Source: an uncultured Methylomirabilota bacterium
GTDB taxonomy: Bacteria; Methylomirabilota; Methylomirabilia; Methylomirabilales; 2-02-FULL-66-22
Direction of reading: 5' to 3'
Length of the DNA: 64,000 nt
Assembly (NCBI GenBank): GCA_963705305.1
Contig: OY970067.1
Coordinates: 3,872,001 to 3,936,000 of the forward strand
Shown: one piece after another, positions 1-9,582 of the stretch
Position numbering within the stretch: position 1 is the stretch's first letter
How the letters are laid out: every line of letters begins with the position of its first letter
The notes under the pieces: generated by a model
Told to the model about the DNA's origin: nothing
The model's input: only the letters and a program-made list of their open reading frames with translations
The model's database searches: none
Position numbers and translations under genes: made by a program

Positions 1-423
1 TATGCGACCCGGGCGCTGTAGGAACTGATCCTTCATTACGAGGAGGGGCCTATCCCGGTGGATGCCATTGCCGCTCGGCAGGGATTGCCTGTCCGCTATC
101 TGGAGCAGTTGCTGCTGGCCCTGAAGCGCGCCGGTTTCCTCGGCAGCAAGCGGGGGGTGAATGGCGGCTACTACTTGGCCAAGCCGCCGCGCGAAATCAC
201 GCTCGGCCAAATCCTGCGTGCAGTAGATGGTCCCGTCACTCCGATTTTCTGTGCGGCGGAGGGTCCCCGAGAGCAGTGTCCCCGCGAGGCAGACTGTGTC
301 CTGCGCGATGTGTGGGCGGAGGTGCGGGATGCGGTGTCGGCCATCGTGGACCGGACGACGCTGGCGGATATCGGCGAGCGGATCAAAGCCAAGCGGCAGG
401 ACCGGATCACGTATCAGATCTGA
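1..423 (+). CDS. Rrf2-family (IscR/CymR-like) transcriptional regulator, 5'-partial, with an in-frame TAG at 19-21
   Basis: Frame 1 reads YATRAL*ELILHYEEGPIPVDAIAARQGLPVRYLEQLLLALKRAGFLGSKRGVNGGYYLA (Rrf2 winged HTH). The C-terminal C-x8-C-x5-C is a possible Fe-S ligand set. Confidence 0.9.
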
Positions 424-614
424 GACTGCTCCAAGGGCGCACGCAGCATCCGGTACCAGCGGAGAGCCATGGGGGTGCGGCCGCGCAGGTGTGATGCCTG
501 CGTCCAAGAGGCGTCACCGGGATCTCCGGCGCGGAGACTGTTCCGATCGTTCGCCGCTCTTCCCGCAGAGGCCGATGTCGCGTCAAATTCGGAGAGGCCA
601 ACAGGAGGATGCCC

Positions 615-1724
615 ATGGGCGTCACGGTCTACATTCCCACTCCGTACCGCCAATTCACGAACAATCAGGGGCGGGTGGAGGTCGAGGGGAATGATGTCTT
701 GGCACTGATCCGGGAACTGGAGCGGCGCTACCCCGGGCTGCGCGAGCGGATCCTGGCGCCGGATGGCAGCCTGTTTCGCCACTTGAACGTGTACGTGAAC
801 GACCGCGCCGTGGAGGAGCTGCAAGGCGTGCAGACTCCGCTCCGGGACGGCGACCGGGTGGCGGTCATTCCCGCCATGGCGGGCGGCACGGACAAGGCCG
901 GGGGAGGACTGGCCTTCACCGAGGACCAGATCCGGCGCTACAGCCGCCACATCATCCTGCCCGATGTCGGCGGCAAGGGGCAGCGCCGCCTACTCAACAG
1001 CAAGGTGCTGCTGATCGGGGCCGGAGGGTTGGGTTCGCCGGCGGCGCTCTACCTGGCGGCGGCGGGAGTCGGGACGCTGGGGATCGTGGACTTCGACGCG
1101 GTGGACCTGAGCAACTTGCAGCGTCAGATCCTACACCACATGCACGATATCGGACGGCCCAAGGTGCAGTCGGCCGCGGAAAGCATCGCCGATCTCAATC
1201 CGGATGTGAAGGTCATCCCCTATGAGACGGCGTTGTCCTCCGAGAACGTCCGCCGGATTTTTGCCGACTACGATGTCATCGTGAACGGATCGGATAACTT
1301 CCCCACGCGATACCTGGCCAATGACGCCTGCGTGCTTCTGGGGAAGCCGATGGTGGATGGAAGCATTTTCAAGTTCGAGGGACAGGTCACCGTCTTCGTG
1401 CCGGGACAGGGCTGCTACCGCTGCCTCTACCCGGCCCCGCCGCCTCCCGGCGTGGTCCCGAGCTGTCAGGAGGCCGGGGTCCTGGGGGTGGTCTGCGGCG
1501 TAGTGGCCTCGATTCAAGGGGTGGAGACCATCAAGCTGCTCCTGGGGTTGGGCGACCCCCTGGTCGGACGCCTGCTGTTCTTCGACGCCCTGGCGATGGA
1601 GTTCCGGCAGGTCAAGTTTCGGAGGGACCCGAGCTGCCCCGTGTGCGGGGACAACCCGACGGTCACCGAGCTTATCGACTATCACGAGTTCTGCGGGATG
1701 CCGCCCACGGCGCGCGTGAGCTAG
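615..1724 (+). CDS. moeB: Fusion of a MoaD/ThiS-like ubiquitin-fold domain and a ThiF/MoeB (E1-like) adenylyltransferase
   Basis: N-terminal beta-grasp domain ends VAVIPAMAGG (GG at 882-887). It is followed by RYSRHIIL, GAGGLG, DLSNLQRQ, CYRC, SCQEAGVLG and CPVC. RBS AGGAGG at 603-608. No rhodanese domain. Confidence 0.92.
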   Translation: MGVTVYIPTPYRQFTNNQGRVEVEGNDVLALIRELERRYPGLRERILAPDGSLFRHLNVYVNDRAVEELQGVQTPLRDGDRVAVIPAMAGGTDKAGGGLAFTEDQIRRYSRHIILPDVGGKGQRRLLNSKVLLIGAGGLGSPAALYLAAAGVGTLGIVDFDAVDLSNLQRQILHHMHDIGRPKVQSAAESIADLNPDVKVIPYETALSSENVRRIFADYDVIVNGSDNFPTRYLANDACVLLGKPMVDGSIFKFEGQVTVFVPGQGCYRCLYPAPPPPGVVPSCQEAGVLGVVCGVVASIQGVETIKLLLGLGDPLVGRLLFFDALAMEFRQVKFRRDPSCPVCGDNPTVTELIDYHEFCGMPPTARVS

Positions 1725-1803
1725 GCGTGGGGTGCCGGGGCAGACTGGCGGTGAGCCGCGTCCCCGTGCGTCCGGGGGGGGCGAGGCCGGAAGCGGAGCC
1801 TTG

Positions 1804-2304
1804 ATGCGGGATGGCACTGCCGGCGGGACATTCCTGGATCTTCCGGAAACGCAGATGCGAGAGATCGTCCGCCAGGCAGAGGCGGGGTATCCGGAGGAAA
1901 TATGCGGGGTCGTCGTGGGACGGCCTGGCGCGCCCGAGACCTACCAGGTCCGCCAGATCCGGAATATTGCCAACGCCGACCCGCAACGGGATCCCAAGGG
2001 GGTGCCCCGGGACGCGCGCACGGCCTATCGCATGGATGACCTGGAGCTCCTACGCGTCCTGCGGGAGGCTGAGAGCCTGAGACACGAGGTGGTGGCCTTC
2101 TACCATTCCCACCCGGACCATGATGCCTGCTTCTCCGCCATGGACCGTGATCGGGCACTTCTCTCCGGCGAGCCGCTCTGGCCCGGAGCCAGTTATCTGA
2201 TCGTGTCGGTGCGCTCCGGCCGGGCCCGCGACGCGCGAGCGTACTTCTGGAACGGCGCGGCCCGGGGTTTTGTCGAGTGCCCGGCTGTGCTCCCTCCCTC
2301 CTGA
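1804..2304 (+). CDS. JAB/Mov34 (JAMM, M67) metallopeptidase, Mec/HcyD-like
   Basis: YPEEICG plus the HSHPDHDACFSAMD JAMM motif. Start codon uncertain. Confidence 0.9.
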   Translation: MRDGTAGGTFLDLPETQMREIVRQAEAGYPEEICGVVVGRPGAPETYQVRQIRNIANADPQRDPKGVPRDARTAYRMDDLELLRVLREAESLRHEVVAFYHSHPDHDACFSAMDRDRALLSGEPLWPGASYLIVSVRSGRARDARAYFWNGAARGFVECPAVLPPS

Positions 2305-2419
2305 ACCAGCTCGCCGCGAGCGCCTGGGGCGGGAAAAGAGGCTTTGCACCGCGATACTTTTGCGTTATGGTTTCCGCAGGATCGGCGAGGGGTGTTTCGT
2401 CGCGTCCGAGGAGGGGGAG

Positions 2420-2920
2420 GTGAAGACGCAGGAGGCGCTGAGTCTGCTCATTGCGCTCGAGGAGCGCGTCGCACGAATCTATTTCCAGTTCTTCCGGCGG
2501 TTTCGCGACGACCGGGCGGTGGCGTGTTGCTGGTGGGACATGGCCGGCGACGAGTACGGCCACGCGGGCATCCTCAAGATGGTGCGGGATCTGGTCTCGC
2601 CCCAGGCGGAATCTCGCGAGATAGGCGCTCGTCTCTGGTCGCTGGTCGAGGTGGTCGAGCGCTGCGAGCAACAGGCTGCCGACGCCGACACCTTGCCCCG
2701 GGCTCTGGAGCTGGCCGTCAAGCTTGAATCGTCGGAGCTGGACGTTCTGGGGCATCGGATCGTTCAGTCCATGCGTGCGCAGTTGCCGGAGGGGGCCGCG
2801 CGCCCCTTCATCGACGAGGATGGTCACTGCCGACGATTGGTGGAGGCGGCGGGAGAGCTGCAGGATGCCAGGCTGCGGCAACGCCTGGAGGCGCTGCTCT
2901 CCAGCGCCAGGGGCCGCTGA
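2420..2920 (+). CDS. Ferritin-like / rubrerythrin-type four-helix diiron protein
   Basis: E...ExxH occurs twice (ALEE...DEYGH; KLE...DEDGH). GTG start preceded by a G/A-rich RBS. Confidence 0.65.
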   Translation: MKTQEALSLLIALEERVARIYFQFFRRFRDDRAVACCWWDMAGDEYGHAGILKMVRDLVSPQAESREIGARLWSLVEVVERCEQQAADADTLPRALELAVKLESSELDVLGHRIVQSMRAQLPEGAARPFIDEDGHCRRLVEAAGELQDARLRQRLEALLSSARGR

Positions 2921-2932
2921 CCGGGGTGAAAC

Positions 2933-3175
2933 ATGGCGAAGCGACGCGTGCACTTGACCTTTCAGGGGCAACTGGCGGACGAGCCGGCGATCTGGAACAT
3001 GAGCCGGGAGTTCGATCTGGTGTTCAATATTCGCCAGGCGGATCTGGTGGACGGGTTCGGCTGGATCATGCTGGAGCTGGAGGGGGATTCCCAACGGCTG
3101 GCCGACGCAATGCGATGGCTGGAGGATCGTGGCGTTATCGTTGCCCCCATCGAGCAGGACATCGTGACAGGCTAG
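2933..3175 (+). CDS. Stand-alone NIL-domain protein
   Basis: RVHLTF...EPAIW...LVFNIRQA...GWIMLELEG...WL...GVIV matches the NIL (ACT-like) pattern. Confidence 0.85.
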   Translation: MAKRRVHLTFQGQLADEPAIWNMSREFDLVFNIRQADLVDGFGWIMLELEGDSQRLADAMRWLEDRGVIVAPIEQDIVTG

Positions 3176-3229
3176 ATCGCCCCCCGTGCCGCCTGAGAAA
3201 TATGCCTGGTTTGTGAGTCGGATTTTTGC

Positions 3230-3258
3230 TTGACATGTTTCTGTTGGGCTGGTTAAAT
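3230..3258 (+). promoter_or_regulatory. Sigma70-type promoter upstream of the SAM riboswitch
   Basis: TTGACA at 3230-3235, 17-nt spacer, TTAAAT. Confidence 0.6.
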
Positions 3259-3271
3259 CCGCCAGCATCGC

Positions 3272-3400
3272 TGACTCATCCAGAGTGGCAGAGGGACTGG
3301 CCCTGAGAAGCCACGGCAACCCCGGTTGAAACGTCGGACGAGGGGTGCCAACTCCAGCCTCTACCCTGGTGGTCGAACGGGGGAGGGGAGAGATGAGAAG
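3272..3400 (+). ncRNA. SAM-I (S-box) riboswitch
   Basis: CTCATCCAGAG-TGGCAGAGGGACTGGCCCTGAGAAGCCACGGCAACC...GGTGCCAACTCC...AGATGAG. P1 (CTCATC/GATGAG) and the canonical core are present. Confidence 0.95.
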
Positions 3401-3421
3401 GCGGCTGACGATCGGTTTCGT

Positions 3422-3460
3422 GAGCCCCTTCTCGGAGTGAGAGGGGGCTTTTTCTTTTGT
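3422..3460 (+). terminator. Intrinsic terminator (riboswitch expression platform)
   Basis: AGCCCCTTCTC-GGAGT-GAGAGGGGGCT followed by TTTTCTTTT. Confidence 0.85.
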
Positions 3461-3475
3461 CTGCGGAGGCGGACC

Positions 3476-3703
3476 GTGGCGACATTGCGCGTGAGGCTCA
3501 TCTTCCCGCCCGATCTTGTCCGCGAGCCGGTGATCTACAACGTGGCCAAAACCTACGGCCTCGTTCCAAACATTCGCCGGGCGCGGGTGACGGAATCGGC
3601 GGGAGAGACGACACTGGACTTCACGGGGACAGAGGACGATCTGAAGCGGGGGCTCGAGCATCTGACCGGGCTGGGAGTCCGCGTGAAGCCGGTCAAGGAG
3701 TAA
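3476..3703 (+). CDS. Second stand-alone NIL-domain protein
   Basis: LRVRLIFPPDLVREPVIYNVAKTYGLVPNIRRARV...LDFTG...GVRV. GGAGG RBS, GTG start. Confidence 0.85.
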   Translation: MATLRVRLIFPPDLVREPVIYNVAKTYGLVPNIRRARVTESAGETTLDFTGTEDDLKRGLEHLTGLGVRVKPVKE

Positions 3704-3730
3704 CGGGACACCCGGGAAGGTGGGGGTTCG

Positions 3731-5002
3731 ATGGGACACGTGAAAGGCCTGAAGTGTCGTGAGTGTGCGCGGCCGTATCCCGCCCAGCCACGGCACGTCT
3801 GCGAGTTCTGTTTCGGCCCGCTGGAGGTGGATTACGATTATCAGGCCATTCGCCAGCAGCTGACGAAGCAATCCATCCAGGAGGGGCCGCCCACCATGTG
3901 GCGCTACCGCGCGCTGCTGCCGATTGACGGCGAGCCGGCGGTGGGCCGCCATTGCGGTTTTACCCCGCTGGTGCGGGCGCGCAACCTCGGGAAGGCCCTG
4001 GGGCTCCTCAATCTGTACGTGAAGAACGACACGGTGAACCACCCCACGCTGTCCTTCAAGGACCGGGTCGTCGCCGTGGCGGTGAACAAGGCGATGGAGT
4101 TCGGGTTCCCTGTGGTCGCCTGCGCCTCCACCGGGAACTTGGCAAACTCGGTGGCGGCGCATGCGGCGGAGGGGGGACTGACCAGCTTCGTCTTCATCCC
4201 CTCCGACCTGGAGCAGGGGAAGGTGGTGGGAACCGCCATCTATGCTCCCAACGTCATCGCGGTGGATGGGACCTATGACGAGGTGAACCGCCTGTGCAGC
4301 GAAGTGGCGGACAAGTACGGCTGGGCCTTCGCCAACATCAACCTGCGGCCCTACTACGCCGAAGGCTCCAAGACCTTCGGCTACGAGATCGCCGAGCAGC
4401 TGGGCTGGCGGGCGCCGGATCACATCATCGTCCCGGCCGCCGGGGGATCGCTGATCACCAAGGTCTGGAAGGGCCTGCAGGAGTTCTGTTCGATGGGACT
4501 CATCCCGGAGGTGCCTACGCGGATGCACGTCGCGCAGGCGGCCGGCTGCGGCCCGATCGTGACCGCGGTCAAGGCGGGGAGCGAGGTGATCCGCCCGGTC
4601 AAGCAGCCGCGGACTATCGCAAAGTCGCTGGCCATCGGGAATCCGGCCGACGGCTACTACGCCTTTAAGGTCGTGAAGGGGAGCGGCGGATCAGGCGAGC
4701 ATGCCAGCGACGAGGAGATCATCGACGCGATGAAGCTGCTGGCATCCACCGAGGGCATCTTCGCCGAGACGGCGGGGGGCGTCACCGTGGCCGCGACCAG
4801 GAAATTGGTCCAGCAGGGGCTCATCGGGCGGCACGAGGTGACCGTGATCTCGCTGACGGGAAACGGGCTGAAGACCCAGGAGGCGGTCGCGGGCACTCTG
4901 CGCACCGCCGCGCACATCAAACCGACGTTGAAATCGTTCGACGAGGCGCTGAGCCAGGCCCCGCCAGCAGTCGAGGCGAGCCGGAGAGCCGACGCGGCCT
5001 GA
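3731..5002 (+). CDS. Threonine synthase-like fold-type II PLP enzyme, probable O-phosphohomoserine sulfhydrylase
   Basis: N-terminal CxxC...CxxC, PTLSFKDR PLP lysine, CASTGNLANS, EGSKT, TGNGLK. Lies under a SAM riboswitch next to a sulfur carrier. Confidence 0.88.
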   Translation: MGHVKGLKCRECARPYPAQPRHVCEFCFGPLEVDYDYQAIRQQLTKQSIQEGPPTMWRYRALLPIDGEPAVGRHCGFTPLVRARNLGKALGLLNLYVKNDTVNHPTLSFKDRVVAVAVNKAMEFGFPVVACASTGNLANSVAAHAAEGGLTSFVFIPSDLEQGKVVGTAIYAPNVIAVDGTYDEVNRLCSEVADKYGWAFANINLRPYYAEGSKTFGYEIAEQLGWRAPDHIIVPAAGGSLITKVWKGLQEFCSMGLIPEVPTRMHVAQAAGCGPIVTAVKAGSEVIRPVKQPRTIAKSLAIGNPADGYYAFKVVKGSGGSGEHASDEEIIDAMKLLASTEGIFAETAGGVTVAATRKLVQQGLIGRHEVTVISLTGNGLKTQEAVAGTLRTAAHIKPTLKSFDEALSQAPPAVEASRRADAA

Positions 5003-5031
5003 CATCATCGCATTCGAGGGGGGCAACGACG

Positions 5032-5310
5032 ATGAGCGTGCTCGTACGCATTCCCACACCGCTGCGCCCGCTCACCAAAGGGCAGGGCGAGCTCAATACG
5101 GATGCGGCAAGCGTGAAGGAATTGATCGACAGGCTGGAGCGAGACTACGCAGGGATCAGGACGCGCATCTGTGAAGACGACGGCAACGTCCGCCGCTTCA
5201 TCAACATCTATGTCAACGAAGAGGACATCCGGTTCCTGCAGGGGACCGAGACGGCTTTGAAGGCCGGGGACGAAGTATCCATCGTGCCGGCCATCGCCGG
5301 CGGGCGCTGA
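5032..5310 (+). CDS. MoaD/CysO-like ubiquitin-fold sulfur carrier with a blocked C-terminus (GG-R)
   Basis: VRIPTPLR...RRFINIYVNEEDIRFL...VSIVPAIAGGR*. Confidence 0.92.
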   Translation: MSVLVRIPTPLRPLTKGQGELNTDAASVKELIDRLERDYAGIRTRICEDDGNVRRFINIYVNEEDIRFLQGTETALKAGDEVSIVPAIAGGR

Positions 5311-5659: not shown

Positions 5660-6508
5660 ATGCCCTCAGGGGTGGTTCGGAATGCTCGGGATGTTTTTGG
5701 CTCCTTGAACGCCCCCGTGGGACAGAGCTCCGTCGTCTCTCAAGTGATCGAACGGATCAAGGACGCGCTGATCCGAAAAGATCTGAAGCCGGGCGACTAT
5801 CTCCCTTCGGAGGCAGACCTCAGCCGAAACCTCGGTGTCAGCAAGTCGACGATTCGCGAGGCCGTCAAGATGCTCCAGGCCCTGGGGGTGGTCGAGGTCC
5901 GCAGGGGACAGGGGACGCTCGTTCGGAAGCATCCCAAGGCCGACTACATCAGCCCCCTGGTCTTTCATCTCATCATGGAGAGCGGCTACCCGGACGACCT
6001 GGTCGAGCTGCGATTGATGTTTGAGCCCGCGTTCTCGGTCATGGCGATGCAGCGGGCCACGCCGCAGGATCTGGAGCGCATCCGGCAAGCGATGGAGCGT
6101 CTGGAATCCTCCGTCCAGGCGGCGAGCCACATCGCCGACGAGGACATTGCCTTCCACCTGGCGATTCTGCACGCCACGAAGAACCCGCTGGTCATCCGAA
6201 TCGGCGAGACCCTGTTTCAACTCTTCAAGCCCTCCATCAGCGTCTCCATGAAGAACATTCCGGAGCGCGCCATCCAGGATCATCGAAGGATCTTCGAGGC
6301 CTTCTGCTCGGGGGACGCCGTCCTGCTCCGCGAAGCGGTTCTGAACAGCTACGAAGGCTGGAAGGAGAGCCTGTATGGCAGGCCGGGGAGGCCGGAGCAC
6401 CGGTCCGGCGGCGAGCGTGAGGGCCGGAGTCCGTCGGAGGGCGCGGGGTCGGATCGGGTGGGTCTTGGGATGCAGCGCGCGGGGCGGACGGGGCGCATGC
6501 GCCGATGA
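5660..6508 (+). CDS. FadR/GntR family transcriptional regulator
   Basis: LKPGDYLPSEADLSRNLGVSKSTIREAVKML...RRGQGT HTH. FCD domain with DIAFH...I...N...H. Confidence 0.93.
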   Translation: MPSGVVRNARDVFGSLNAPVGQSSVVSQVIERIKDALIRKDLKPGDYLPSEADLSRNLGVSKSTIREAVKMLQALGVVEVRRGQGTLVRKHPKADYISPLVFHLIMESGYPDDLVELRLMFEPAFSVMAMQRATPQDLERIRQAMERLESSVQAASHIADEDIAFHLAILHATKNPLVIRIGETLFQLFKPSISVSMKNIPERAIQDHRRIFEAFCSGDAVLLREAVLNSYEGWKESLYGRPGRPEHRSGGEREGRSPSEGAGSDRVGLGMQRAGRTGRMRR

Positions 6509-6729
6509 CGGCCCTGCTGTGGGACGGAGGCCGGACCGTTCTGCCCATGCAGGGGTGGGATGTCGCGGGGGCGGGGCCCGGTCCCTCTCGATTCTTGCGC
6601 CTGACCGGGCGGCCTCGGACCTCCGAGACGGTTCGGGTGATCGGGACCGTGCGCGCCCGATCGAATTCGGCCGCGACGGCGCATTGCTGCGCCGGCGGAG
6701 AGTAACCATCACGCAGAGGAGGGACAAGC

Positions 6730-7236
6730 GTGACCTCGGCCTTGTGCTTTCTGAGCGATTGGACCGACCGGCTGACGCGTTGGCTGCTGGTGCCGATCGG
6801 CGTGCTGTTCGTGGCCGTGGTGTTCCTGGCGGTGCTCACGCGCTATGTCTTCCGGGCGCCCATCATCACCTCCATCGAGCTGGCCCGCATCGGGTTTGCC
6901 TGGTGTGCGTTTCTTGGGGCGGTGATGTGTTTGAAGCGGGAGAAGCACACCCAGTTCCTGTTCCTGCTGGACCGATTCCGCGGGAGAGCCAGGCACTGCC
7001 TCGACACCGGCATCGCAGCGCTGTCGCTGGGCTTCTTTGCCGTGGTGACCTTCAAGGGCGTGCAGATGGTCCAGGCGGTGCAGGATACGTACTTCCCCGC
7101 GCTGGGCTGGTCCCAGGTCTGGCTGTACCTTCCAGTCCCCGTCTGCTGCGCATGCATGTTCGTCCATACGACGGCCCAGTTGGCGCGGGACGTCCAGGCG
7201 CTGCTCCGGCCCGCTGAGCAGGGGGGCCGGTCATGA
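6730..7236 (+). CDS. dctQ: TRAP transporter small permease (DctQ)
   Basis: About 4 TM segments, V.TRYVF...ELAR...W..FLGA...H motif. Overlaps the dctM start. Confidence 0.88.
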   Translation: MTSALCFLSDWTDRLTRWLLVPIGVLFVAVVFLAVLTRYVFRAPIITSIELARIGFAWCAFLGAVMCLKREKHTQFLFLLDRFRGRARHCLDTGIAALSLGFFAVVTFKGVQMVQAVQDTYFPALGWSQVWLYLPVPVCCACMFVHTTAQLARDVQALLRPAEQGGRS

Positions 7237-8516
7237 TCGGGCCCATGCTCCTCGGCTTCGCCGTGCTGGCGGTCTGCGGCGTTCCCATCGCAGTGGCCAT
7301 GGGGATCGCCGTCCTTCTCACGATGGGATTCCTCACGCCCTTCCCCATCCTCGGCATGGTGCAGCGGATGGTCACCGGCATCGACTCGTTCGTGTTGATC
7401 TCCATCCCGCTCTTCCTGCTGACCGGCCGGCTGATGAATGTCGGGGGGATCACGAACGACCTGTTCGCCTTCGCCAGGAGCCTCGTCGGGCCGATCCGGG
7501 GAGGGATGGCCCACGCCAACGTCATCGCCAACATGATCCTGGCCGGCATGTCCGGTTCGGCCGTGGCCGACGCGGGCGGGATGGGTGTGGTGGTCATCAA
7601 GGCCATGAGCGATCAAGGGTACCGCCGCGACCTGGCGGGCGCCCTTACCGTCGCCGCCTCGACCATCGGCCCCATCATCCCCCCCAGCATTCCCATGGTT
7701 ATCTATGGTGCCATGGCCGATGTGTCGGTAGGAAGGCTGTTTCTGGGCGGCTGCGTGCCGGGTGTTCTTATGGGGCTGGGACTGATGGTGCTGATCTGGA
7801 TGCTCAGCCGGCGAGAGCGGATGCCCAAGGATAAGCGCTACAGCCTCAGGGAGGTCTGGGCGGCGTTTCGGGCGGCCTTTCTGTCCCTCCTCACGCCGGT
7901 GATCCTGATCGGGGGAATCCTCAGCGGGATCTTCACCCCGACGGAGGCGTCCGCCGTCGCCGCCGTGTACGCCTTTCTGCTCTGTTTTCTCGTGTACAAG
8001 AGCGTGAGTCTCCGGGACGTGCCTTCCATTATCGTGGATACGTTTGTTACGACGGCGGTCGTCACGTTCATCATTTCCGTGACCTCGGGCTTCTCGTATC
8101 TTCTCATCATCGGACGGATCGGCAGCCTGCTGGTGGATCAGACTCTGGCGTTCACACGGAACCCGTTCGTGGTCCTGTTCATCGTGAACGTCGTCCTGCT
8201 CATCCTCGGCTGCCTGATGGAGGCCGGAGTTCTGCTCATTCTCCTCACGCCCATCCTGGTTCCCATGATGGCTGCGCTGGGAGTCGACTTGGTGCACTTC
8301 GGCGTCGTCATGGTCCTCAACCTCATGATCGGCGTGGCGACGCCGCCGGTCGGCATGTGCCTCTTCGTCGTGAGCCAGGCGAACGACATCAAGCTCGAGC
8401 GGCTGATGCGAGAGGTCATCGTGTGGATCCTTCCGTTGATCGCGACACTGTTTCTGATCACCTACTTTCCCGGCCTGGTCATGACAGTTCCCAACTGGCT
8501 GATGCCGGGAAAATAG
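7233..8516 (+). CDS. dctM: TRAP transporter large permease (DctM)
   Basis: SGSAVAD, GPIIPPSIP, GIFTPTEA, HFGV, TPPVG motifs. Confidence 0.95.
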   Translation: MIGPMLLGFAVLAVCGVPIAVAMGIAVLLTMGFLTPFPILGMVQRMVTGIDSFVLISIPLFLLTGRLMNVGGITNDLFAFARSLVGPIRGGMAHANVIANMILAGMSGSAVADAGGMGVVVIKAMSDQGYRRDLAGALTVAASTIGPIIPPSIPMVIYGAMADVSVGRLFLGGCVPGVLMGLGLMVLIWMLSRRERMPKDKRYSLREVWAAFRAAFLSLLTPVILIGGILSGIFTPTEASAVAAVYAFLLCFLVYKSVSLRDVPSIIVDTFVTTAVVTFIISVTSGFSYLLIIGRIGSLLVDQTLAFTRNPFVVLFIVNVVLLILGCLMEAGVLLILLTPILVPMMAALGVDLVHFGVVMVLNLMIGVATPPVGMCLFVVSQANDIKLERLMREVIVWILPLIATLFLITYFPGLVMTVPNWLMPGK

Positions 8517-8598
8517 AGTAGAAAAGGGGGTGGTTCCAGGGCGGACAGGCTCAGGCGGGCGGATGTGGATTCCAGTCTGACAACAGGAGGATCTGCAG

Positions 8599-9582
8599 AT
8601 GAAGTGCGTCTATGCAGGATTCATCGCGTGTGTTGTGATCGTGAGCCTGGCGGTGCTGCCCTCGGTATCGGGGGCACAGACGTACACGGCGAAGATAGGA
8701 ATCGGGCATCCGCCTGGACAGTCGTTCGTCGTGGCCTCCGAGAAGTTCAAGGAGATGGTTGAGCAGCGGACCAACGGGCGCCTGAAGGTGCAGATCTACC
8801 CCAGCAGCCAGCTCGGCGGCGAGCGGGAGATGCAGGAGATGGTGGCGCTGGGAACCCTGGAGATGAGCGTGAGCGGCGTCGCGGTCGTGTACGAACCGCT
8901 CTTCGCCCTGCTGGAGGCGCCGTACCTGTTTCGCGACCGGGAGCAAATCAGAAAGGTGTACGCGAGCCCGGTGGTGGCGGACCTCTCGCAGGGATTGCTG
9001 GCCAAAGGGATCCGGGTTGTCGGCTTCTATGAGAACGGATTCCGGCAGATCACCAACAGCACGCGGCCCATCAATACCCCCGCCGACGCCAAGGGACTGA
9101 AGATCCGCACCCCCGAGAACCTGGCCCAGATCGAGACGTTCAAGGCGCTGGGAGCGATTCCGACCCCCATGGCCTACAACGAGTTGTACAATGCCATGGC
9201 CCAGGGGGTTGTGGACGGGCAGGAAAATCCGCTGCAGAACATCTGGACCGGCAAGATGTATGAGGTGCAGAAGTATCTGGCCATGACCGGCCACATCTAC
9301 AACAGCGCCTACGTCATCGCCAACAACAAGTTCTGGACCGGCCTCCCCGCCGATATTCGCAAGATCGCCGACGAGTCGCTGACGGAGGCCTGCAACTGGC
9401 AGATGGACTACGTCGCCAATCTGGACAAGAAGCTGCTGGAGGATCTCAAGGCCAAGGGCATGCAGGTGACCTCTCCCGACCGGGAGGCCTTCCGCAAGGC
9501 CACCGCCCCCGCGTACGATGCCTTCTACGCCAAGTTCGGGGATCGCGCCCGGAAGATCATCGACACCATTCGAGGCATGTGA
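8599..9582 (+). CDS. dctP: TRAP substrate-binding protein (DctP)
   Basis: Signal peptide. YPSSQLG, NGFRQ, KGLKIRTP, GVVDGQENP. Confidence 0.95.
   Translation: MKCVYAGFIACVVIVSLAVLPSVSGAQTYTAKIGIGHPPGQSFVVASEKFKEMVEQRTNGRLKVQIYPSSQLGGEREMQEMVALGTLEMSVSGVAVVYEPLFALLEAPYLFRDREQIRKVYASPVVADLSQGLLAKGIRVVGFYENGFRQITNSTRPINTPADAKGLKIRTPENLAQIETFKALGAIPTPMAYNELYNAMAQGVVDGQENPLQNIWTGKMYEVQKYLAMTGHIYNSAYVIANNKFWTGLPADIRKIADESLTEACNWQMDYVANLDKKLLEDLKAKGMQVTSPDREAFRKATAPAYDAFYAKFGDRARKIIDTIRGM

Follow-up and report, generated by a model that had tools for sequence, protein, structure and literature searches.

A probable MetM/MetO-type route to homocysteine, encoded together with two free-standing NIL-domain proteins in one gene cluster of an uncultured Methylomirabilota bacterium

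What is the role of a threonine synthase-like enzyme encoded among ubiquitin-like sulfur carriers, behind a riboswitch for S-adenosylmethionine (SAM)? The question is raised by a gene cluster in the first 5,310 nucleotides (nt) of a stretch of 64,000 nt, here called the window (positions 3872001-3936000 of contig OY970067.1, assembly GCA_963705305.1), from an uncultured Methylomirabilota bacterium whose genome (G000 in our comparisons) is a single contig of 5.65 Mb with 66% G+C, 98.9% complete. A preliminary description of this DNA had proposed that the enzyme, which resembles threonine synthase (ThrC), carries out a gamma-replacement joining O-phosphohomoserine to the thiocarboxylate of a ubiquitin-like protein (Ubl), with a JAMM protease maturing the carrier. 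Our analysis supports that proposal, which matches the accounts of the MetM/MetO/Mec/MoeZ system in the available parts of two sources (10.1101/2024.10.14.618325; PMC12172450), and we consider it likely, with good though not full confidence, that these genes make up a self-contained homocysteine pathway of the MetM/MetO type. The cluster is laid out as follows.

1..423, + strand: gene of an Rrf2-family regulator, open reading frame (ORF) 58-423, true start 23 nt before the window (PF02082, E 6.6e-33)
609..1724, + strand: fusion of a Ubl to an E1-type activating enzyme, 371 amino acids (aa) (ThiS at aa 7-93, E 9e-15; ThiF at aa 111-345, E 1.3e-84)
1732..2304, + strand, probable start ATG at 1804: JAMM/Mec-like metalloprotease (Prok-JAB PF14464, E 2.5e-20)
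2420..2920, + strand: predicted rubrerythrin-like (ferritin-fold, diiron-type) protein of 166 aa (conserved residues, PF02915 matches of its family, AlphaFold (AF2) model)
2933..3175, + strand: the free-standing NIL-domain protein NIL1, not part of the riboswitch unit (PF09383, E 2.5e-17)
3230..3258, + strand: promoter-like TTGACA-17 nt-TTAAAT, read from the sequence
3273..3399, + strand: SAM-I aptamer (RF00162, 74.1 bits against a gathering cut-off of 44.4, E 1.7e-15)
3422..3460, + strand: intrinsic terminator, the expression platform (12-bp hairpin at 3422-3450 followed by a T-run)
3476..3703, + strand: NIL2, likewise a free-standing NIL-domain protein, whose gene opens the riboswitch unit, GTG start after GGAGG (PF09383, E 3.1e-12)
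3731..5002, + strand: predicted MetM-type homocysteine synthase, a ThrC-like pyridoxal phosphate (PLP) enzyme (PALP, E 2.2e-67)
5032..5310, + strand: predicted MetO-type sulfur-carrier Ubl (ThiS/SAMP-like) ending AGGR (ThiS PF02597, E 2.9e-17)

All of the genes, the riboswitch and the terminator had been named before, and the ORF list, Pfam, NCBIfam, Rfam and a terminator scan together confirmed them on the + strand and in the order described. One boundary was revised: the NIL2 gene is present, but the reading frame first assigned to it, 3326-3703, is too long, its GTG start lying at 3476. The cluster was also said to be without a rhodanese or desulfurase, and none was found within it; six rhodanese-domain matches lie elsewhere in the genome. 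The metO gene begins 29 nt after metM.

By homology with the described MetM/MetO system, the JAMM protease would trim MetO, which ends in GG-R, to expose Gly-Gly, and would probably also free the Ubl that is fused to the E1. The E1 would then adenylate the carrier C-terminus, and the adenylate would be converted to a thiocarboxylate by a sulfur donor encoded elsewhere, the E1 itself having no rhodanese domain. MetM, a PLP enzyme of the threonine synthase fold, would eliminate phosphate from O-phosphohomoserine and add the thiocarboxylated carrier (MetO-COSH) at the gamma carbon; homocysteine would be released with or without the help of JAMM, and MetH would convert it to methionine. A route of this kind has been described for Streptomyces albulus, where MetM, MetO, Mec and MoeZ lead from O-phosphohomoserine through a thiocarboxylate to homocysteine, in the relevant sections of two sources citing Hasebe et al. 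2024 (10.1101/2024.10.14.618325, Appendix 4; PMC12172450). The steps given in the available text of the GapMind 2026 preprint are the sulfur carrier MetO, a Mec hydrolase for MetO maturation and a MoeZ ligase (10.1101/2024.10.14.618325), and in the sections available of PMC12172450 the S. albulus metM gene is preceded by a SAM riboswitch and metM homologues are spread among cyanobacteria.

The predicted MetM of the window shares 51% identity over 412 aa with a Streptomyces filamentosus homologue at a riboswitch-metM-metO locus, and MetO shares 52% identity over 91 aa with its counterpart there. The S. albulus system shares with this cluster a SAM-I riboswitch ahead of the gene of a ThrC-like enzyme, the gene of a ThiS/MoaD-like carrier after it, and the dependence of that carrier on a JAMM protease and an E1. 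Unlike the actinobacterial loci, the Methylomirabilota cluster contains its E1 and JAMM (no E1 lies within ~5 kb in 79/80 loci of the actinobacteria-rich set defined below), and unlike the S. albulus system its E1 is rhodanese-less with an N-terminal Ubl, and there are two NIL proteins and a rubrerythrin-like protein besides. Two other carrier systems offer comparison. In Wolinella succinogenes, HcyS, HcyF and HcyD work with MetY, a Ubl thiocarboxylate donating the sulfur for homocysteine; the Ubl thiocarboxylate, E1 and JAMM are shared with our cluster, and the difference lies in the acceptor, O-acetylhomoserine, and in the MetY-type enzyme. In Mycobacterium tuberculosis, CysO, CysM, Mec and MoeZ likewise combine a Ubl, a JAMM protease and an E1 to feed a PLP enzyme, and they differ in the product, which is cysteine, in the cysteine synthase fold of the enzyme, and in the fusion of the E1 to a rhodanese. 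This mycobacterial set is listed as operon type 4d in Table 1 of PMC1779556.

Is the enzyme of the cluster anything other than the threonine synthase of this organism? The genome holds four ThrC-like genes, one of them a canonical thrC at genome positions 4800342-4801640, whose product scores 431-506 bits against the solved ThrCs 2zsj, 6cgq, 1uim and 2d1f; MetM scores 180-214 bits against the same four, and they align to it only from residue 51-62 on. A second, separate thrC and a clade apart from ThrC had been named among the checks to be made, and both came out as the proposal anticipates: in a quick IQ-TREE inference (a careful search is unfinished), the 81 MetM-like rows, that is the window protein and 80 homologues, were separated from the four ThrC paralogues with 96 in the Shimodaira-Hasegawa-like approximate likelihood-ratio test (SH-aLRT) and a branch of 1.93, and the window protein nested among Methylomirabilota sequences. 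MetM is thus a paralogue distinct from canonical ThrC. The Schiff-base lysine motif S108-F-K110-D111-R112 is invariant among 54 aligned MetM homologues, and the N-terminal four-Cys zinc ribbon (C9, C12, C24, C27) is kept in 54/54. As a separate observation, another ThrC-like protein of ~620 aa is encoded at 3954313-3956172, 18 kb past the end of the window, with an N-terminal zinc ribbon and a C-terminal match to the C-terminal region of 2-isopropylmalate synthase (LeuA); almost all of the 40 relatives retain it, with 36-41% identity to MetM, and it shows no link to the cluster.

The remaining gene content fits a methionine pathway that draws on O-phosphohomoserine. The thrB gene is present (262 bits, above cut-off), as is metH, in two adjacent pieces at 4441317-4444734 that overlap by a few bases and represent either a split gene or a frameshift. 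The absence of metX had been put forward as a check, and neither MetX nor MetA nor HcyBio (PF01837) gave a match at E<=1e-5 in this 98.9%-complete genome.

The most telling comparison comes from the genus, represented by 21 genomes including that of the window (wider gene tallies used 41 genomes, among them the unpublished G028, on which nothing claimed here depends). MetM orthologues scoring at least 630 bits occur in 12/21 (G000, G001, G002, G003, G006, G007, G011, G012, G015, G016, G019 and G020), and MetY is above its cut-off in 7/21 (G002, G004, G005, G010, G011, G013 and G014). MetX, at 475 bits or more, adjoins MetY in six of the seven MetY genomes, the two being on different contigs in G010, and five genomes (G004, G005, G010, G013 and G014) carry MetY-MetX without MetM. 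The strongest SAM-I riboswitch lies immediately 5' of metY in G004, G005, G013 and G014 and 5' of NIL2-metM in the MetM-positive G020, so that the riboswitch follows the homocysteine-forming enzyme. Since the genomes of a genus are kin, no statistics were attached to this swap; it is the best evidence in our analysis that MetM and MetY/MetX are isofunctional.

How far does the arrangement extend beyond the genus? Three sets of loci were compiled: a diverse MetM set, the best 80 of 583 confirmed MetM relatives among genome contigs, from Methylomirabilota, Nitrospirota, Nitrospinota, 'Deltaproteobacteria'/Thermodesulfobacteriota, Zetaproteobacteria, Chloroflexota, Cyanobacteriota, Aquificota and Elusimicrobiota; an actinobacteria-rich set of 80 loci, mostly Actinomycetota with many Streptomyces, from contigs scanned with the back-translated invariant MetM motif; and a NIL set, the best 80 of 560 confirmed relatives in a search begun from an alignment of NIL homologues. 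In the diverse set, a Ubl lies within 2.5 kb 3' of MetM at 75/80 loci (68/72 where at least 700 nt follow), the five without being L033, L045, L071 (just 350 nt downstream), L087 and L090. Every locus of the actinobacteria-rich set has a full-length MetM homologue (80/80), with a Ubl directly downstream in 74/80. A survey of conservation had been suggested as a check, and the core of the cluster is found to be conserved widely. The other members accompany it less regularly in the diverse set: NIL lies near MetM in 39/80 loci (32/58 with at least 3 kb downstream), E1 in 26/80 (23/58), JAMM in 8/80 (8/58 under the same condition) and Rrf2 in 9/80, from several phyla, while neither a ferritin-like protein (0/80) nor a Ubl-E1 fusion was found near MetM in the 80 loci. 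Among the 145 carriers adjoining MetM, six run on without a stop; the 139 with a stop end in GG (83), GG-C (23), GG-R as here (10), GG-K (5) or otherwise (18), and this variation indicates that a trimming protease is often needed.

The link to methionine supply is also visible in the control region. The RF00162 match covers model positions 1-108, a full-length aptamer, and is the one match in the genome; the terminator that follows has a folding energy of -26.2 kcal/mol (z -3.4). The promoter-like site at 3230-3258 was not listed by the promoter scan because the scan rule wants an A at position 2 of the -10 hexamer. No methionine-rich leader peptide follows the riboswitch: positions 3400-3475 contain no ATG, and the one ATG close by, at 3393, would open a frame of 15 codons with one Met. 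To judge from these elements, SAM is predicted to shut off transcription of NIL2-metM-metO through the SAM-I riboswitch and intrinsic terminator, and the Rrf2-E1-JAMM-ferritin-like half of the cluster lies outside this control. When upstream elements in the actinobacteria-rich set were scored with our own covariance model, built from seven Rfam-confirmed elements, SAM-I was found directly upstream and on the same strand in 76/80 loci. In the diverse set it lies upstream of MetM in 22/80 loci (21/76 with at least 500 nt upstream). No riboswitch was found at the cyanobacterial loci of the diverse set, which agrees with what is reported in the available part of PMC12172450.

What, then, are the two NIL proteins doing beside a homocysteine pathway? 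Their scores against PF09383 are 63.0 bits for NIL1 and 46.6 bits for NIL2 (cut-off 24). In the NIL set, MetM at 300 bits or more lies within 4 kb in 74/80 loci and a Ubl in 68/80, and the six loci remaining without MetM are on contigs cut at most 760 nt from NIL, still showing a Ubl or a ThrC-like fragment; given partial overlap with the diverse MetM set and the dominance of Rokubacteria and Dehalococcoidia, these loci are not independent. The five MetM-less clusters of the genus lack both NIL genes, and in four of the five MetM-less sister genomes the NIL profile had no match at all; the fifth, G004, has a lone NIL gene at C3:1672-1905 near a contig end, and its scoring as MetM-less may be affected by assembly breaks. 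At five of 240 loci (L019, L021, L023, L024 and L091, from metagenome-assembled genomes of Thermodesulfobacteriota/'Deltaproteobacteria'), MetO and NIL form a single open frame with the junction ...IIPAIAGG-x3-K/R-R/K-R/K-V/I....

Among solved structures, the NIL profile is related to MetN C2 domains only, and the near-invariant Asn32 of the NIL proteins aligns with N295 of Escherichia coli MetN. The N295A exchange abolishes L-methionine binding by MetN, according to the sections available of PMC6233128, and the NIL domain of the methanogen L-aspartate-semialdehyde sulfurtransferase (L-ASST) is treated as a methionine-binding regulatory domain in those of PMC12068725. The linkage to MetM, the kinship with MetN C2 domains and the N295-equivalent Asn together point to a methionine-sensing partner, and we infer that the free NILs most likely bind methionine and regulate, as partner proteins, the step carried out by MetM and MetO. 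They share the Pfam domain with the MetN C2 domain and the NIL-ferredoxin subunit of L-ASST, and the N295-equivalent Asn is nearly invariant in them; in those proteins the domain is part of a transporter or a ferredoxin, whereas here it is a free protein of 75-80 aa or is fused after the carrier GG. The methanogen NIL-ferredoxin route is likewise a homocysteine route with a NIL domain, as far as the available part of PMC12068725 describes it. Two other roles were considered and rejected: that of a persulfide carrier, since no Cys is conserved in 44 NIL sequences, and that of a second kind of Ubl, since the C-termini vary (EG in 14, E in 10, and others) without a conserved GG. In the literature searched, which did not cover the primary MetM/MetO report, we found no description of NIL as a sulfur-carrier partner: the term 'NIL domain' turned up in PMC5764234 and in PMC12068725, where the NIL sections deal with L-ASST, and the GapMind preprint text has no occurrence of 'NIL' (10.1101/2024.10.14.618325). 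We found NIL to be a recurrent third component of MetM/MetO loci, carrying the Asn of MetN, that is undescribed in the searched literature.

The loading half of the cluster differs more from what is known. The Ubl domain of the E1 (ThiS/MoaD-like, aa 1-93) ends AMAGG, and the adenylating domain (ThiF/MoeB-type, aa ~103-364) has a GxGxxG motif at G137-G142, CxxC pairs at C269/C272 and C343/C346, and a loop cysteine, C286, all nearly invariant. No match to the PF00581 rhodanese was found in the 371 aa, so that the protein falls outside the MoeZ definition, and against the MoeZ model it scores 394.6 bits, below the cut-off of 647, in an alignment over model positions 15-275 of 392. PF02597 and PF00899 are likewise fused in 32 homologues (325-381 aa), whose names suggest NC10/Methylomirabilales; the GG at the junction is kept in 16/16 aligned fused proteins, and most E1 orthologues across the order align from query residue 3-5. 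In the genus, 9/9 clearly fused E1s are in MetM-positive genomes and 5/5 unfused ones (G005, G009, G013, G014 and G018) in MetM-less genomes, the status in G001 and G011 being ambiguous. We thus found a Ubl-E1 fusion that tracks the presence of MetM within the genus, and a rhodanese-less, Ubl-fused E1 is undescribed for this system in the searched literature. ThiS-ThiF fusions are known beside a second, solo ThiS in thiamine operons, and the release of fused Ubls was predicted to be the work of JAB proteins (Iyer, Burroughs & Aravind 2006, PMC1779556, Table 1 row 1, in the sections available); the text of PMC1779556 has no occurrence of threonine synthase, methionine or rubrerythrin. As described there, the thiamine operons share with our cluster the N-terminal Ubl on the E1 and the free Ubl, and they differ in pathway, the GG being kept at the junction here and a JAMM encoded alongside. 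The JAMM metal site, E...HxHx7Sx2D, is present as EEICG and HSHPDHDACFSAMD, and a search of the genome with the window JAMM as query turned up no other.

The gene order of the unfused clusters of the genus is Rrf2-E1-JAMM-ferritin-like-Ubl, and the synteny downstream is the same (MazF, then the DctQ and DctM genes of a tripartite ATP-independent periplasmic (TRAP) transporter); from this it follows that NIL1-riboswitch-NIL2-metM is an insertion or deletion between the ferritin-like and carrier genes. In the window, the region downstream of metO (5660-9582) encodes a GntR/FCD regulator and then the TRAP transporter, which ORF reading resolves into DctQ-like (6730-7236), DctM-like (7233-8516) and solute-binding (8599-9582) genes; in the MetM-less G005 the same TRAP synteny lies 3' of the carrier gene, with a MazF-like toxin gene between. 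The 10 kb upstream of the cluster hold purine genes and AMMECR1 on the opposite strand, which are unrelated.

The 166-aa protein between JAMM and NIL1 had been called ferritin-like. Pfam and NCBIfam assign no family to it at E<=0.01, and its own family is small, with 84 matches at E<=0.001 among 1.84 billion representatives, two of them at E<=1e-30; close homologues bear NC10/Methylomirabilales names or the Joint Genome Institute (JGI) label 'rubrerythrin'. E14, Y21, E45, H48 and E103 are invariant in the family and E106 nearly so (E45xxH48, E103xxE106), while in helix 4 the His is mostly kept and the Glu of its ExxH is not conserved. Against PF02915, 29/32 relatives match at E<=1 (best E 1.1e-9), and the window protein itself reaches 13.4 bits against 22.8. 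The AF2 model, with a predicted local distance difference test (pLDDT) score of 90.3, aligned best in VIA-align with 1vjx, the ferritin-like diiron protein TM1526 (Z 13.8, root-mean-square deviation 2.8 Å over 141 residues, a Z that helical bundles reach easily), and the top 50 matches of this predicted fold all belong to the ferritin superfamily; Foldseek gave no match to the PDB at E<=0.001 (best E >= 0.06). Conserved residues, the relatives' PF02915 matches and the fold match to 1vjx favour the earlier assignment, in the narrower form of a predicted, diverged rubrerythrin-like protein.

Orthologues of this protein (65-83% identity) adjoin JAMM in 11/11 genus loci examined, and a match is present in 19/20 other genus genomes. 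Its paralogues (~42-45% identity) have ZnuA/ABC-3/ABC ATPase neighbours at two loci and FeoB at one (L111, L112 and L115; G005, G020 and G022), with no Ubl, E1 or JAMM beside them at these three loci, and these neighbours suggest metal handling. We found it to be an accessory of the E1-JAMM-Ubl module that is confined to the genus and, in the searched literature, undescribed beside such a system; our best guess is that it would give metal or redox support to the carrier chemistry, or protect it. The Rrf2 protein at the head of the cluster keeps three Cys (C-x8-C-x5-C), and an in-frame TAG interrupts its gene at 19-21, where the codon in three sister genomes is CAG (Gln); either the regulator is truly knocked out or the base was miscalled.

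Several points weigh against reading the whole cluster as one homocysteine pathway. The assignment of MetM as a homocysteine synthase rests on homology, and the tie to the characterised enzyme runs through another Streptomyces species and secondary descriptions. The genome also contains two Cys/Met-family PLP enzymes, neither at any equivalog cut-off, that could supply another route. The alternation of routes in the genus is incomplete: G002 and G011 have both, G006 has MetM and MetX with no MetY at threshold, and G008, G009, G017 and G018 (70-93% complete) have neither. NIL adjoins MetM in 2/80 actinobacteria-rich loci and is absent at the cyanobacterial loci of the diverse set; as most actinobacterial loci and these cyanobacterial ones lack it, it is not needed for catalysis. 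The E1-JAMM-ferritin-like-Ubl module persists in five MetM-less genomes, which is likewise undescribed in the searched literature, and hence need not serve MetM alone; there it either serves another acceptor or is a relic, and by analogy with Wolinella a MetY-type enzyme may take the place of MetM. Finally, a cyanobacterial homologue showed threonine synthase/deaminase activity in vitro and brought no rise in methionine, as reported in the sections available of PMC12172450.

This last result, with its threonine-related activities, and a score of 278 bits against TIGR00260, above the model cut-off, are what one would cite for MetM being a plain second threonine synthase in a coincidental neighbourhood. 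We regard this as extremely improbable, given a canonical ThrC that is far closer to the solved enzymes, an upstream riboswitch that responds to SAM, and a carrier linkage that is conserved across the locus sets. Hardly more credible is a different sulfur product, either cysteine from O-phosphoserine, as with CysM, or a cysteate-type compound: carrier-dependent cysteine synthesis exists in mycobacteria and the fold family includes cysteate synthase, but the TIGR03844 score of 56.8 bits is far under the cut-off of 324.9, the enzyme is orthologous, at 51% identity, to the protein of the Streptomyces metM locus, in sister genomes the riboswitch shifts to the homocysteine enzymes metY-metX, and searches for MetX, MetA and HcyBio found no other homoserine-activating route in the genome. 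MetM could also take free sulfide, sulfhydrylating O-phosphohomoserine directly while the Ubl serves otherwise, and the cyanobacterial homologue did give an unidentified product near methionine with O-phosphohomoserine and Na2S (available part of PMC12172450). The Ubl adjoining MetM in 75/80 and 74/80 loci from many phyla, and the requirement of the published system for MetO-COSH (10.1101/2024.10.14.618325, in the sections available), make this improbable as well.

A weightier alternative, though still an unlikely one, is that the E1-JAMM-ferritin-like(-Ubl) half is a separate system, feeding MetY as in Wolinella, synthesizing cysteine or modifying proteins, and merely lies beside the riboswitch operon. 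It accords with the retention of Rrf2-E1-JAMM-ferritin-like-Ubl and the same downstream synteny in five MetM-less sister genomes, three of which have metY-metX, and with the position of the E1-JAMM half outside the riboswitch. Yet the GG-R end of MetO requires a protease and the window JAMM retrieved no second one, the Ubl-E1 fusion tracks MetM (9/9 fused with it, 5/5 unfused without), and E1 adjoins metM-metO-NIL in 26/80 loci of other phyla; moreover, a separate system and one serving MetM are compatible with each other. In a further, tentative and rather doubtful scheme, the NILs would be methionine-sensing subunits acting on the carrier step, and the Ubl-E1, JAMM and rubrerythrin-like proteins would form a portable loading module with a new sulfur/redox input, feeding either MetM or MetY.

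Returning to the MetM/MetO-type pathway, its core is already published, and on novelty the preliminary description was wrong to that extent; the parts that we did not find described are the NIL proteins, the E1 with a fused Ubl and no rhodanese, and the protein of diiron type. What is new is the architecture: a clustered Ubl-fused rhodanese-less E1, JAMM, rubrerythrin-like protein and two NILs, together with the swap of MetM and MetY in one genus. MetM-type enzymes carry the annotation of threonine synthase in databases, and recognising them fills a gap in methionine biosynthesis in uncultured Methylomirabilota/Rokubacteria, Nitrospirota, Nitrospinota, Chloroflexota and Zetaproteobacteria. The genus offers a natural experiment, with MetM and NIL set against MetY and MetX behind the same riboswitch class while the carrier-activating module stays constant. 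This gives biochemistry three targets: NIL, which probably senses methionine, the donor that supplies sulfur to an E1 lacking rhodanese, and the part played by a diiron-type protein next to a thiocarboxylate system. If NIL does sense methionine, it would provide fast feedback at the protein level on top of the SAM riboswitch.

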